Virus record (IMG/VR): IMGVR_UViG_3300025875_000010
Coordinates: 13,292-77,291 of that record
Length of the DNA stretch: 64,000 nt
Source: a virus
Taxonomy: Duplodnaviria; Caudoviricetes
Reading direction: 5' to 3' (one strand)
The notes under the pieces: generated by a model
Seen by the model: only the letters and a program-made list of their open reading frames with translations
What the model was told of the DNA's origin: nothing
Database searches by the model: none
In this document: in pieces, positions 30,053 through 53,780 of the stretch
Position numbering within the stretch: the stretch's first letter is position 1
Layout: each line of letters begins with the position of its first letter
Position numbers and translations under genes: made by a program

Positions 30053-33000
30053 TTATGAATAGGTCTTGCTATTAGTGTAGGCCACAACATTTGAGTTATT
30101 ATATGCTGTGAACTTTCTAGTAACAGCCGTTCCCGTATCAGTAATCTCAATAATGCTGTACTGCTCAACCGTTCCGCTAGATGGGCTTGGTCCCCAAGTC
30201 AATGTGTTAACCTTTTTCGAAGCACCCTGATGAAGAGGTGAAGAATGCATAACAGGAATACCAAGTGAATTGGTTCCATCGTCATATCCAACGGCGTGCA
30301 TATCACCAGCCAAAATTTCAACGTTCTTGCCGCTAGCCTTAATAAAGTTGGCTAGCTCAGTACGCTCTGTGTTGTAACTAGGCCACTCATCATCAGCATC
30401 AGAATAATTTGAGAATGGCTGATCATTTCCCCAAAAGATTAGAGGCTCCGTTGCAGCCGTAATCGTATTCTTAAACCAAGTCTTCTGCTCAGCACCCAAA
30501 ACAGTCTTTGAGCTATTGTCCGTAGCCGTTTGTACTGACTTGTAACTGCGGTTGTCGGTAACAATAAATCTAACTCTACCAATAACATACGTGTGATAGA
30601 TTCCACCAGTAGCCGATGGCAATGAGTAATGCGGTACGCGCTTACGATATGCAGACTGAGCATATGGCTTAACAGTCGCTCCGGTGCCGCCAGTTCCATA
30701 TGAATTGTTTGGACCGAAATCGTGATCACTCCACGTATAATCAAAAGCCATTTCCTTAAGCATTGGCCCAGAACCTGATGCGCTCAGCATTGTGTTAAAC
30801 TTATTGTGGTAATTAGTCTCAGATGCTGTTGCATTGTCCGCATAGTGAAAATCTCCAACAGACAAGAAGAAGAGTGGAGAGTGAGCCTTAATTCTACCAT
30901 AAGCTGCCGAAACACCATTTGCGTTGTCACATGAGGAAAAGGCAAACTTAAAGCTACTTGCGCCCTGAGGTGCTGTCCTCAAAGATTGAATCTTAGCTTT
31001 ATCAATACCGGACCCTAGCTGCATTGCATAGTAATACTTAGTATTAGGTGTTAAGCCTGTAATTGTAGACTTCACATAACCGGCGCTATCTGGTGTTGAG
31101 GTAGTGGCAGCTAGAATTGGATTAGACATATCCGCTGAGGTGCTGACAGCAAGCTTCGCGGAAGGAGCACCTGAAGCCGTAGCTGATGCAGTAAATCCTG
31201 TAGACGTTAAGCCACCAGCCCACATTGTAACAATTGAGCCCGTTGGGTTTCCTGTACTGGTCTGGTTATGATAAGGGTTGGTAACCCCTGTTGGTACCGG
31301 CCAACCGGTATGCCAGTGCCACAAATCTCTAATTTCTGTAGATGCATATTCCGTGGCAGAGGCACTTGTTTCATTGAATTGGTTATAGTTACCCACCTTT
31401 TGGTACCAACTTGAACTTCCAGTAGATACCAAAGCATTTGAAGTAGCTGCTGGTACATTCATATTATTGTAGTAAAATCTTGCTTCACCAGCAACTATTT
31501 CTAGCATGCCCTCAAACTCTGTATTAGGAACATAATTATCGGCAAATACTACAATCTGACTTCCATTAGCCCTACCGACCAAACGGCACGTTCCATCACC
31601 ATTGCTGGTTGTACGAATAGCAAGGCGCTCAGTGTCTCCATTATGAAGCTGAGCAATACATACCTCTGAATCATCCGGCGGAAGGTGTGTTACGCGCGCA
31701 CGGAAGTGTAGCTGATGAACACCACCATCTTTTGCATCGAAGCCCATGTTTGTCCCGTTCAAATCAAGCTCTCTCAATTCAGAGCGCGCGAAGCTAGAGC
31801 CTGATGTTGTTGGGCCGTCAGCCCTCGCCCAAAATTGCACTCTATTAATTCCACCACTATTAACAACCTTGAAGTAAGGATCTTCGTTGTAACCGGCGGC
31901 AATGTCAGCCTGAGTCTTTGTGACAAACGTACTTCCACCATTAGGTGCAACCTGAACAGAAAAATGATTTTTTCCAGGTGCTGTGCCAATATTCAAAACC
32001 GTAGCTGGTGTTCCCGTTGGTGTTGGAGCTGGATCAACGGGTGTGGTTGGTGTTGTCGTAATGGCCGGTGAATAAACAGACTCGATGGCCTTATTGAATA
32101 CCGTGGGCCAGCCCGTGTGCCAGTGCTCCAAATCTCTTACAATAACTCTAGAATATTCAGAAGGAAGATCCGATGTAGAGTTGCTTCTATTCTGAACACC
32201 AACCCTGAACGACCAAGAAGCTGATCCTGTAGAGAGCAAAGCTGTTGAAGTAATAATTGGATCTCTCATGCTACCGTAATAAATTCTAAGCTGTCCATCA
32301 ACAACTCGAATTGAAAACTCAAATTCTGCATTAAGAACCAGAGGGTCCATTAAGCGAGGTGTGACCAAAGAACCATTAATAAACGCTCCCAAAGATACCA
32401 CACCATTAGATAGATATGCTCTGATTGATGCTCGGTCTCCCGAACCATTATTAAGCTCTGCAATTACTGTCTCGGGGTTGTTAGGTGGAAGATGAACAAT
32501 TCTCATCTTACCTCGGATGTAATGTGTTCCTACAAATGGGTTAAAAGTATATACTGAGCCATTAGAATTAACTTCTTTTAACTCCGTTCCAGTGAAATTA
32601 GAACCGGGAAGCTTCGGACCATCCAGTCTAGCACTCATCTGAACACCTCTCGTTTCAGATGGTGCTAATCTATAGAAGTCTACACTAGACATTACTGGAC
32701 TTAAAAAGCCTAGAGCTTGACGAAGAAGGCCAACCTTTCTGGATACTACCGCATCCCTAGCCACGACAGACTTAGCTAGAAGTGCTAAATGATCAGACAT
32801 TAAGAAACAGTGCAAATCTGCAATATCTTCTGTTACATTATATCTTGCCCAATCGCTCATGTAACCGGCCGGGTGGTCACCAGTAAAGGATGCTCCAAAT
32901 GCAGAACCAGACGGGTTCTGTGCAGAAAAATTAGCCTGCATTGCAGCATCCCATACTGTATTAAGATAAATGGCAGCGTGCATGTACTCGTGATGGAACT

Positions 33001-51543: not shown

Positions 51544-52524
51544 TTATTTTTCAAACCGTTCTACAACGTGAGCAAAGGTCTTCTCAGTCAACCGGTCCCA
51601 ATCCCAGCGCCTCTGAATATAGCCAATTCTATCAAATGCCATGGGTGTCAACTCATCAATCTTGCTGACGGCAATCTTCATCGACTTCGCCAGTTCAGCC
51701 TCATCAGGATGCAACATATTACCGGGGTGTACGGCAGGCCAAGGAGACTTCAAAAGATTTGTCTTGACCCGCAGAGCCTCTAGAGTGGCTATCTCATAGG
51801 GCGCCCATCCTTCACTAACGATGACCGGCATTCCTGTAACCATGGCCTGTAGTGGAATCAGTCCGAATCCCTCACCGTAAGAAGGATAAACTAGAACGTC
51901 ATGGCGGTGAACAAGATCAACCATTTGGTCTTCGGTAAACTCTTCCGTAATGATTTTAACATTACTTAGTTCATTGAATGGATGAGCATTGTTGATGCCC
52001 CTGATAGTTGATGATCCAAAACCCTTAATGGTCAATGTTGCTTTATTGCTATCACCATAGAGTTTCTTGAAAGTGTCATATACTAATTGACCGGCCTTGC
52101 GAGGTGCCGGTTCTCCAATGTGGAGAAACTTAACCGGGCCGGGGCGGCGGTGGCGCTTCTTTGGCGTCCACACTTCTGAATCCACACCATGCTCATACAC
52201 ACGCGCGTTATAGCCCTTTTTGTTAAACCATTTAGCCATAAGCGGTGAAGTCGTCCACAATTCGTCACAACTTTGCAGACCCGCTCGCCACTTGGCCGGG
52301 ATTGTGGTAGACTCCCAAGCAACGTAGCCAATCTTGTAAGCATTTGGATTAGACCAGTGCCATAGATAGGGCTGAGAGAAATTAAGCTCGACCGGCGCTG
52401 TGCTATCCTTGTAGGGAACTTCGTGTCCGAGTCTCTGTAGAGACCTCACGATACCGTATGCGGCTACTCCGTAACCGTGTGTAGTGATGAGGTTGGATTC
52501 TGGAACAGATAGACTAATCTTCAT
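51544..52524 (-). CDS. GT-B (family 4-like) glycosyltransferase
   Basis: HGYGVAAY, WESTTIP, RKAGQ, VYPSYGEGFGLIPLQAMVTGMPVIVS. Confidence 0.85.
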   Translation of the reverse strand: MKISLSVPESNLITTHGYGVAAYGIVRSLQRLGHEVPYKDSTAPVELNFSQPYLWHWSNPNAYKIGYVAWESTTIPAKWRAGLQSCDELWTTSPLMAKWFNKKGYNARVYEHGVDSEVWTPKKRHRRPGPVKFLHIGEPAPRKAGQLVYDTFKKLYGDSNKATLTIKGFGSSTIRGINNAHPFNELSNVKIITEEFTEDQMVDLVHRHDVLVYPSYGEGFGLIPLQAMVTGMPVIVSEGWAPYEIATLEALRVKTNLLKSPWPAVHPGNMLHPDEAELAKSMKIAVSKIDELTPMAFDRIGYIQRRWDWDRLTEKTFAHVVERFEK

Positions 52525-52549: not shown

Positions 52550-52747
52550 ATGAACGGAATTGAGAGAATCAAACGGGCGATTGCCCTCGACGGTGGCTAT
52601 GAATATTGTGAAGAACACAACACATACCGCTGGTGGAGTCCAGATAATTGCTCAAACAAACACAAAGAACTTCCACGCGGATATTTTACTTGTGAAGAGC
52701 ATGGGCGAATTCACACTCCCGAAGAACAAGCCTGGCATTGTGACTAA
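52550..52747 (+). CDS. small Cys/His protein (65 aa)
   Basis: RBS AGGAG then MNGIERIK; duplicated CEEH motif. Confidence 0.55.
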   Translation: MNGIERIKRAIALDGGYEYCEEHNTYRWWSPDNCSNKHKELPRGYFTCEEHGRIHTPEEQAWHCD

Positions 52748-52809
52748 CTTGCGTCATAATGAACAAGATGTTACTATTCAACTAGTCAAGTGATCAGCAG
52801 CCTACCTGA

Positions 52810-52838
52810 TTGCAAAGGACGCATTTTTGTGCTACACT
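52810..52838 (+). promoter_or_regulatory. promoter
   Basis: TTGCAA-17 nt-TACACT. Confidence 0.7.
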
Positions 52839-52844
52839 TGTATG

Positions 52845-53290
52845 TACACGTATACGCCCCAAGCAATCTAGTAGGCCCTCGAAAGAGGAGATTGCTTGGG
52901 GCTTTTACTATTTGTTAGTTCAACAGGGTTTAAGAGCACGCTCTGACAACCCACCGATAAGAGTCAGCCTACTGCTGTTATCGGAAACGGCAACAACCGG
53001 GATTCCATCCTAGTAAAAAGTTGTTGCGTGTCTCCCCTGAAATACTGGAAGAGGGGGTGGAACCTTAAGCAGTTCCGAGACTAGGGCATGGAGTGGACCG
53101 TTTGGCATACCGGCACCCCTAGGATTGAAGTTGAACCGTCCAAAAGGACGCTCCCCCAGGTGAACTCTATCAAAAAGAATTTATTCAATCTTAGACTATA
53201 CAAAAGCTTATCAATTAGATAACCCTATTAGTAGTAATTAAACACTCCGCGAGCGGAGCGAGCCCGGCGAAGCCGGTCTAGAAAGGAACT
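52845..53290 (+). ncRNA. candidate long structured RNA or structured leader
   Basis: No convincing ORF; many perfect stems and long-range complementarities (see findings). Confidence 0.5.
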
Positions 53291-53293
53291 TTA

Positions 53294-53503
53294 ATGGATA
53301 ATAAAGAAAGAAAAGCTCTTAGAGCTAAAGAGAAGAAAGACCGAGAAGATCGATGGGTAGAATTAGTCAAGAAAAAGCAAAAAACTCCTTCTAGATTAAG
53401 AACTGGTCGAGACATTCCTTATTCAAAGAAGTTTTCAGAAGTTACTATCACTAGTCCGGACGGCACCGTAGAAGTGGTTCCAGCAAAGAAGAGAGCAAAA
53501 TGA
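53294..53503 (+). CDS. basic hypothetical protein
   Basis: RBS AAAGGA; 69 aa, Lys-rich. Confidence 0.65.
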   Translation: MDNKERKALRAKEKKDREDRWVELVKKKQKTPSRLRTGRDIPYSKKFSEVTITSPDGTVEVVPAKKRAK

Positions 53504-53615: not shown

Positions 53616-53780
53616 ATGCGCTTTATCATTGAGTGTCAAGAAGATATACACCGACTCGTAGGGTGGTACAATAGTGATAGGATCACAGCGGAAGAATATT
53701 TCGATGCTGTTGATCAGTATGCGGCCCGAATGTTTGAAGATGAAGTGGAACGGGTATCATGGTTAGAACGATGGAGGTGA
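53616..53780 (+). CDS. hypothetical protein
   Basis: RBS AAGGAG then MRFIIECQ. Confidence 0.6.
   Translation: MRFIIECQEDIHRLVGWYNSDRITAEEYFDAVDQYAARMFEDEVERVSWLERWR

Follow-up and report, generated by a model that had tools for sequence, protein, structure and literature searches.

The region analysed here carries a real and conserved RNA control module of about 200 nt, which lies outside Rfam and, judged from its sequence, has the appearance of a so far undescribed RNA switch that acts on early transcription. By the window we mean the whole stretch of DNA analysed, which comprises the final 64 kb of an IMG/VR virus record of 77 kb with a completeness estimate of 60%. Four phages share the geometry of a promoter, the structure of the hairpin that follows it (P1), and the covarying complementarity of three short words (site A, loop B and site C). 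Our best reading of the region is a regulatory leader of the rightward early gene block of the phage, in which these parts would form a terminator/antiterminator attenuator of ~200 nt behind tandem promoters that also gives a short hairpin RNA; taken as a whole, we consider this model about evenly balanced between right and wrong. The original prediction had proposed an unrecognised ncRNA, ribozyme or attenuator. The attenuator option is supported by the present analysis, but a ribozyme-like stand-alone RNA of ~450 nt is not.

The leftward genes of the window, which end at 52524, have virion and auxiliary functions (portal, protease, capsid, ribonucleotide reductase, endolysin, fibre proteins and a GT4 glycosyltransferase), and the major capsid protein is 66-69% identical to the capsids of Streptomyces cluster BE phages. 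From 52550 rightward the genes are small and have no function assigned. The element sits in a gap of 546 nt between a 65-aa ORF (52550-52747) and a 69-aa ORF (53294-53503), the latter basic and joined by ATGA translational coupling to a 33-aa ORF. Both the switch in gene orientation and the minimum of the cumulative GC skew fall at the element.

Relatives were sought among 80 IMG/VR loci gathered via the capsid protein, and the longer records were searched with the region itself. Two phages, G001 (133 kb, complete) and G003 (35.6 kb), showed 74-75% identity, confined to the promoter and the first hairpin. A covariance model of promoter and P1 (R2), run over 48 related records, added only G002, in which the element lies at the extreme end of the contig; P1 is found by this model only in these three relatives. 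The capsid proteins of the four phages are 67-77% identical in every pair, indicating four separate and about equally distant lineages. The element occupies the same place in all three phages with readable context, where virion/fibre genes diverge from small rightward early genes. Beyond chance matches, pattern scans of viral contigs returned G003, G002, G001 and a twin contig identical to the last, and one pattern scan of metagenome contigs returned the same records and no new members. No match was obtained among GenBank phages by blastn and tblastn with the region and both flanking small ORFs, and related-locus searches with the glycosyltransferase, the 69-aa ORF and an aligned 54-aa ORF found nothing beyond G003. 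The weight of the finding is limited by its four members in the collections searched.

An Rfam scan, which the original prediction had named as a check, assigned the element to no family. Rfam 15 at gathering thresholds gave no match over the whole window, a search of 52600-53500 at E<=10 gave chance matches only (E 3.8-8.7, far below gathering), and the loci of the relatives were likewise without a match. Neither C4/P4 CI nor IsrK was matched in these scans even at E<=10, and no riboswitch or T-box was matched. Group I/II introns, retrons and RNase P-like RNA were rejected, as there is no Rfam match and no interrupted gene. ARAGORN reported no tRNA or tmRNA, despite an acceptor-stem-like GGUGGAG...CUCCACCA pairing in G001 and G003.

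The statement in the original prediction that the region holds no convincing ORF stands, since no ORF there has a family match: a PHROG search of the ORFs in the gap found none and no frame is conserved, and a hidden protein gene was discarded for these reasons. One frame of 42 codons (GTG at 52790, end at 52918) runs across P1 and the segment upstream of it that we call region 1, with no Shine-Dalgarno sequence seen before it; the frames at its place in G003 differ from it, and the small ORFs further upstream are not alike between the phages. The flanking genes themselves show some further features. The 65-aa ORF (52550-52747, + strand) has a good Shine-Dalgarno sequence, a duplicated C-E-E-H motif (DNA repeat D2) and more Cys/His residues, and its product could be a small zinc-binding protein; PHROG, Pfam and tblastn against phages gave no match for it, and it is not conserved in G001 and G003, where its position holds either no ORF or an unrelated ORF of 80 aa. 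Downstream, the window has a 54-aa ORF (53616-53780, + strand; motif WYN..RITAE.Y.DA.D.YA) that shares 44% identity with the first ORF behind the G003 leader (L083:1974-2147), and the window adds two small coupled ORFs (69 aa and 33 aa, ATGA) between the leader and the 54-aa gene.

The proximal promoter (52810-52838, + strand) is composed of TTGCAA (52810-15) and TACACT (52833-38) separated by 17 nt, with TG before the -10 box and a predicted start near 52845, and is the sole site of its type in the window. The corresponding sites are TTGCTA-17-TACAAT in G001, TTGCAA-17-TACAAT in G003 and TTGCTC-17-TATACT in G002. The predicted geometry is therefore kept (a TTGCNN -35 box and, 17 nt further on, a TAnAnT -10 box extended by TG) while the spacer sequences diverge, and hexamers retained around a varying spacer point to a sigma70/sigmaA-type promoter. 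The earlier proposal of a promoter-driven RNA is supported in the form of a + strand RNA element behind this conserved extended -10 promoter. No rRNA-type boxA was seen in the sequence behind the promoter.

Hairpin P1 (52856-52902, + strand) begins ~10 nt after the predicted start. Both the sequence and the predicted folds give it a lower stem of 14 bp (52856-69/52889-902), an internal loop of 7 nt on the 5' side (loop B, AGUAGGC, 52870-76) and an apical stem of 4 bp, CCTC-GAAA-GAGG (52877-88). It is followed by the U-rich tail UUUUACUAUUU (52903-52913, + strand), which is complementary to UAGUAAAA at 53011-18 (inverted repeat I14); a pyrimidine- or U-rich tail, with at least 5 T in the 8 positions after the stem, follows P1 in all four phages. 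A GC-rich hairpin of 14+4 bp followed by UUUUACUAUUU has the shape of an intrinsic (Rho-independent) terminator, and we regard P1 as a putative one; our terminator scan missed it because the loop limit of the scan shuts out the bulged stem. Across three phages 96% of the cells in P1 are paired, with compensatory changes. The lower stem (GCCCCAAGCA...) is near-invariant, with exchanges of U-A to C-G and of A-U to G-C, an A-U to G-C change occurring in G002, and the apical stem covaries (CCUC/GAGG, CCGC/GCGG and UCUUC/GAAGA) beneath an invariant GAAA cap. Covariation among homologous regions had been suggested as a check on the original prediction, and P1 and the B:C pairing do covary, but with four sequences only the covariation statistics are weak (57/500 shuffles). 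The G-U pairs, like the GAAA cap and the tail rich in U, are in keeping with the + strand only.

Loop B is complementary to a downstream word, site C, in every phage (4/4), although the word itself differs from phage to phage. The B/C pairs are AGUAGGC/GCCUACU at +64 in the window, UGAGGC/GCCUCA at +54 in G001, CUAGGG/CCCUAG at +40 in G003, and CCUGGGGA/UCCCCAGG, a pair of 8 nt, at +11 in G002. Shuffling of the downstream sequence gave a probability of a B:C match within 80 nt of 0.0036 for the window, 0.042 for G001 and 0.042 for G003. The original prediction had seen a probable pseudoknot between loop B (AGTAGGC) and GCCTACT, and the covariation of this complementarity in the relatives supports the pairing. 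Every phage also has the word of site C a second time, 2-9 nt before its -35 box (site A); the site A of the window is CAGCCUAC at 52798-805 (direct repeat D11). The resulting A/B/C triads are GCCUAC/GUAGGC/GCCUAC in the window, GCCUCA/UGAGGC/GCCUCA in G001 and CCCUAGUCA/UGACUAGGG/CCCUAG in G003, and in G002 UCCCUCCC and UCCCCAGG stand against CCUGGGGAGGGA. MAFFT put A, B and C in no shared columns, and their covariation is accordingly based on duplex folding and direct reading. A mobile-element target-site duplication as the source of the A/C direct repeat was rejected, as it fails to explain B as the complement.

Complementarity upstream of the promoter extends beyond site A. Region 1, the candidate antiterminator strand (52800-52822, + strand), comprises site A (GCCUAC, 52800-05), GAUUGC (52808-13), which overlaps the -35 box, and then GG and GC, its complement being the 5' half of P1, loop B included. 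The second block of complementarity covers the -35 hexamer: GAUUGC/GCAAUC in the window, GGUUGCU/AGCAACC in G001, GGUUGC/GCAGCC with a U-G pair in G003, and UUGCUC/GAGCAA in G002, whose -35 box, TTGCTC, is off-consensus in such a way that it pairs with GAGCAA of P1. Predicted duplexes between region 1 and the 5' half of P1 reach -21.6 kcal/mol in the window, -24.5 in G001, -28.0 in G003 and -32.0 in G002, against shuffle means of -9 to -16 (window -9.3, p 0.001), with p<=0.001 in each phage. The region 1 helices include G-U pairs, whose counterparts on the opposite strand would be mismatched as A-C, and this assigns the helices to the + strand RNA.

Folds of a partial transcript that stops at the end of the 5' half of P1 predict the region 1 helix in all four phages. 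In folds of the full sequence P1 is more stable than this helix in three phages, by a margin of 10-12 kcal/mol, and G002 favours the region 1 helix. According to these folds the region 1 helix and the P1 terminator exclude each other. An alternative helix that uses the 5' strand of a terminator and is transcribed first is characteristic of an attenuator, and region 1 is predicted to form such a helix. Given that P1 is favoured at equilibrium by this margin in three of the four phages, read-through would need kinetics or a factor.

Region 1 would be present only in RNA that starts upstream of it, and each of the four phages has a promoter-like site at a distance of 60-87 nt upstream from the proximal -35 box, those of the window and G002 being weak. 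The site of the window, P_up (CTGGCA-17-CATAAT, 52732-52760, + strand), was found by the promoter scan; it overlaps the end of the 65-aa ORF and is a weak consensus match (9/12) without TG. The scan also reported TTGACT-17-TAAAGT in G003 and TTTGCA-18-TATAGT in G001, both with TG before the -10 box, and the weaker TTTGCA-18-TATCTT of G002 is a reading by eye that falls below the scan threshold. Transcripts from P_up would thus include region 1. The original prediction had missed both this second promoter-like site and the upstream competing strand made of site A and the -35 region, and it is these that lead us to read the first hairpin as a regulated terminator rather than a mere 5' stem. A few genes downstream of the leader in G003 there is a further unit (L083:2400-2450), whose TTGCCC -35-like box and extended -10 box TGCTAGAAT flank a GC hairpin (GCCCCCUGG...CCGGGGGGC); it may be another promoter/hairpin combination of this clade.

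In the attenuator model, RNAs from the proximal promoter lack region 1 and would mostly end at P1 as a hairpin RNA of ~60 nt. RNAs from P_up, starting ~80 nt further upstream, would carry region 1, that is, site A and the -35 sequence, and region 1, being made before the 3' strand of P1, could pair with the 5' strand of P1 and loop B. The resulting helix would block the terminator, so that transcription would continue into the leader and the early genes. Where P1 does form, loop B would be free for site C, 11-64 nt downstream, and the two could pair within one molecule, as a pseudoknot, or could join the short RNA to a read-through transcript; this pairing might lock P1 in read-through RNAs or make site C a target of the short RNA in trans. 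From the sequence we infer that P_up fires, that termination takes place at P1, and what sets the balance of the two folds. Since site C is transcribed after the termination decision, attenuation alone leaves its conservation unexplained. As for a sensor that would govern the choice, we recognised no leader peptide, aptamer or known protein site.

The hexamers, stems and complements listed in the original prediction were all recovered at their positions, from the sequence and as inverted repeats I1, I9, I10, I14 and I15, and the TTTTACTA/TAGTAAAA and GCAACAAC/GTTGTTGC pairings are present as described there. Downstream of P1, the predicted folds contain three more hairpins on the + strand. P2 (52926-52952; GGGUU and AACCC around AGAG-CACG-CUCU) appears in both the MFE and the centroid fold; its place is taken in G001 and G003 by another small hairpin (GGGC/GCCC against UUCC/GGAA) with the common loop UGSAAUAAU, and in G002 by none. 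P3 (52954-52984; CCGAUAA/UUAUCGG; repeat I10 and folds) bears site C (GCCUACU, 52967-73) in its apex. P4 (52990-53027; GCAACAAC/GUUGUUGC; repeats I15 and I14, and folds of the single sequence) holds in its loop the UAGUAAAA that is complementary to the tail of P1.

The predicted RNA as a whole (52845-53293) folds at -143.3 kcal/mol, with a z score of -4.06 against shuffled controls, a comparison named in the original prediction. The excess stems from the 5' part: 52845-52990 alone has a z of -7.07, removal of the first hairpin leaves a z of -1.47, significance in sliding windows of 100 nt is confined to 52800-~53050, and the 3' 266 nt (53028-53293) have a z of +0.30. The highly structured RNA of ~450 nt that had been proposed is hence upheld for its 5' ~185 nt (52845-53030) but not for the 3' 60%, which neither energy nor comparison supports. 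The pairings listed for 53030-53293 do exist, but by energy they are no better than chance and comparative support for them is nil. The energy test is insensitive, as the core of the relatives' leaders described below, which has 16 compensatory pairs, scores a z of only -0.71 and -1.61; because the test misses a supported core, the 3' part of the window is not proven unstructured by it.

This rest of the leader (53028-53293, + strand) contains an AT-rich stretch (~53155-53240, GC 0.33-0.36) and two GC hairpins (53243-60 and 53264-77), and ends at the Shine-Dalgarno sequence and ATG of the 69-aa ORF. Its body has no homologue in any collection searched, and the relatives carry unrelated sequence there; it is probably a lineage-specific leader body. 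Within the 3' leader, CUAGGAUUGAA is complementary both to the upstream UUCCAUCCUAG and to the downstream UUCAAUCUUAG, with one mismatch in 11 (53003-53013, 53119-53129 and 53184-53194), and the two long-range helices, CUAGGAUUGAA/UUCCAUCCUAG and CUAGGAUUGAA/UUCAAUCUUAG, are mutually exclusive, each being near chance expectation. The minus strand at 53243-53260 carries a GC hairpin, CACUCCGCGAGCGGAGCG, followed by TTTAATTACT, and looks terminator-like; it lies just past a 45-aa ORF of the minus strand (53278-53415), antisense to the 69-aa ORF. In windows around 53243-53260 the minus strand folds a little better than its shuffles do (z about -2.1 to -2.4), and this hairpin may be the end of an antisense transcript, or chance.

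Behind P1, G001 and G003 have a leader of ~400 nt with a core that is 84% identical between them (242-265 nt; L082:1127-1391, corresponding to G001 80034-80298 on the - strand, and L083:1692-1933, corresponding to G003 31524-31765 on the + strand). Of the 99 pairs predicted in this core 16 show compensatory changes, and an invariant long-range pairing of 11 bp (GUGUCAAUGUC with GACAUUGACGC) competes with a covarying local hairpin. The core also contains a GGUGGAG...CUCCACC(A) helix. It has neither an Rfam match nor a conserved ORF and turned up in these two lineages only; a covariance model of it (R1), run over 30 records, recovered only its own two sources, giving nothing in 28 other related records and a best window match of 4.5 bits. 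The leader of G001 and G003 is by itself a candidate for a new structured RNA. It shares with the window the locus, the promoter, P1 and the A/B/C words in the same order, whereas its 265-nt core is without a counterpart in the window. The failure of R1 to match the window suggests that the window has a different body behind the same control module.

Several other explanations deserve consideration. That the region acts at the level of DNA, as operator sites of a phage regulator or as a replication origin with promoter priming and the AT-rich stretch at 53155-53240, strikes us as very unlikely. The original prediction had offered a structured origin at the strand switch as an alternative, and the switch in gene orientation, the skew minimum and the AT-rich sequence downstream would suit one; however, a change in the direction of transcription is itself a cause of skew, the AT-rich stretch is absent from the G001 and G003 leaders, and the direct repeats are short two-copy families at chance level, with no iterons among them. 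A replication origin is unlikely on these grounds and because the G-U pairs, the GNRA cap and the U tail fit one RNA strand. The half-sites of a dimeric protein also look like reverse complements, so the A/B/C words, or the inverted repeats around the promoter, could be sites of protein binding, and this possibility, together with the weakness of P_up, counts against the attenuator. Operator sites would nevertheless leave unexplained why B lies exactly in the unpaired loop of an RNA hairpin; moreover, the arms are 45-90 bp apart, and the G-U pairs and bulges of the helices fit + strand RNA only. It is also conceivable, though we consider it improbable, that the proximal promoter gives a single long structured 5' leader or ncRNA in which P1 is a protective 5' hairpin and not a terminator. 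The B:C pseudoknot and P2-P4 would then make up one compact domain, which would either protect the early mRNA from 5'-end-dependent decay or serve as a binding site for RNA polymerase or a protein, in the manner of HK022 put. The folding of the 5' domain (z -7), the covarying pseudoknot and the position of the hairpin ~10 nt from the predicted 5' end are consistent with such a leader, G001 and G003 do have a real structured RNA of ~400 nt at the same place, and promoter-proximal cis-acting phage RNAs of similar size are known (HK022 put, PMC9378689). It would not account for the conserved complementarity of region 1, which would be upstream and untranscribed, and it has to contend with the U-rich tail retained in 4/4 phages, a leader body that is not conserved between the window and its relatives, and a 3' part of the window without excess folding.

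A third possibility, which we rate no higher than that of the protective leader, is that the short P1 RNA is itself the regulator, resembling P4 CI or IsrK, with loop B kissing C and/or A. Pairing with A would restore termination and pairing with C could trigger cleavage or refolding, which would amount to a timer or shut-off made of RNA only. The occurrence of the same word upstream (A) and downstream (C) of B in 4/4 phages recalls the seqA-CI-seqC layout of P4 and the isoform logic of IsrK (PMC4825925). B is unpaired in the internal loop of a very stable hairpin while C, in the window, lies in a hairpin apex, and the variable spacing of C (+11 to +64) is more in keeping with a target site than with a fixed tertiary fold. 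Yet the seed is just 6-8 nt, no Rfam family (C4/CI, IsrK or others) is matched, pairing in cis accounts for the same complementarity, and the short RNA would have to be stable or abundant. An immunity function would furthermore be unexpected, as the phages look virulent, being relatives of the Streptomyces cluster BE phages. A regulatory short RNA would be compatible with the attenuator model and would extend it.

The attenuator that we favour resembles the known terminator/antiterminator leaders (riboswitch platforms, T-box and RAT-type leaders) in that the 5' strand of the terminator can pair with a segment made earlier, the two folds are exclusive and the element lies in the leader of an operon. 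It differs from them in having no recognisable sensor, in that its antiterminator strand shares sequence with the -35 box of a second promoter and would be present only in transcripts of the upstream one, and in that the internal loop of the terminator has a downstream partner of its own. Complementary words both upstream and downstream of a small RNA in one unit are a trait of C4/P4 CI, and the predicted module shares it. The C4 antisense RNAs of phages P1 and P7 (Rfam C4 family) are related to the P4 CI RNA. P4 CI controls premature termination and is complementary to upstream and downstream sequences in the same transcription unit (PMC4825925). The likeness extends to a small hairpin RNA in the untranslated leader of an early operon; but P4 CI and C4 are cut out by processing, whereas the RNA proposed here would end at its own terminator, and they come from a temperate satellite or prophage, in contrast to the large virulent-looking phages of this study, where the complementarity spans 6-9 nt and no Rfam model matches. 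In the Gifsy-1 prophage, one promoter gives IsrK as a short RNA ending at a Rho-independent terminator as well as a read-through mRNA, and the short form pairs in trans with the long one (PMC4825925). Short and read-through isoforms are likewise proposed here, but IsrK opens a ribosome-binding site, a link not seen here, where the first ORF begins ~320 nt past site C, and the two have neither sequence nor Rfam similarity. The put RNAs of HK022 are structured RNAs that act in cis just past a phage early promoter and need no phage protein (PMC9378689). They have ~70 nt and two stem-loops and suppress far-downstream terminators by binding RNA polymerase, whereas the present element has one long terminator-like hairpin; the two are compared by general shape only.

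With regard to the biology of these phages, it is a tentative and rather doubtful suggestion, less probable than any of the RNA-level readings above, that a small clade of large virulent-looking actinophage relatives times or shuts off early transcription by RNA alone. Its self-terminated RNA of ~60 nt would, as part of the same suggestion, capture A and C on transcripts from the upstream promoter and turn read-through into termination. To our knowledge, almost nothing is known of early gene control in large uncultured phages, and the RNA-only switches of phages are few (put, P4 CI, P1/P7 C4 and IsrK). The module is compact and well delimited, and clear mutational predictions follow from the two helices that compete in it and the three words that covary. 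Intrinsic termination being generic, any bacterial RNA polymerase would serve to test the module in vitro. A conserved control module can evidently bear unrelated leader bodies, that of G001 and G003 being a well-supported new structured RNA of ~400 nt. If control by RNA alone is true, the module would be an independently evolved counterpart of the P4 CI/P1 C4 immunity RNAs, serving a lytic programme as part of an attenuator with tandem promoters.
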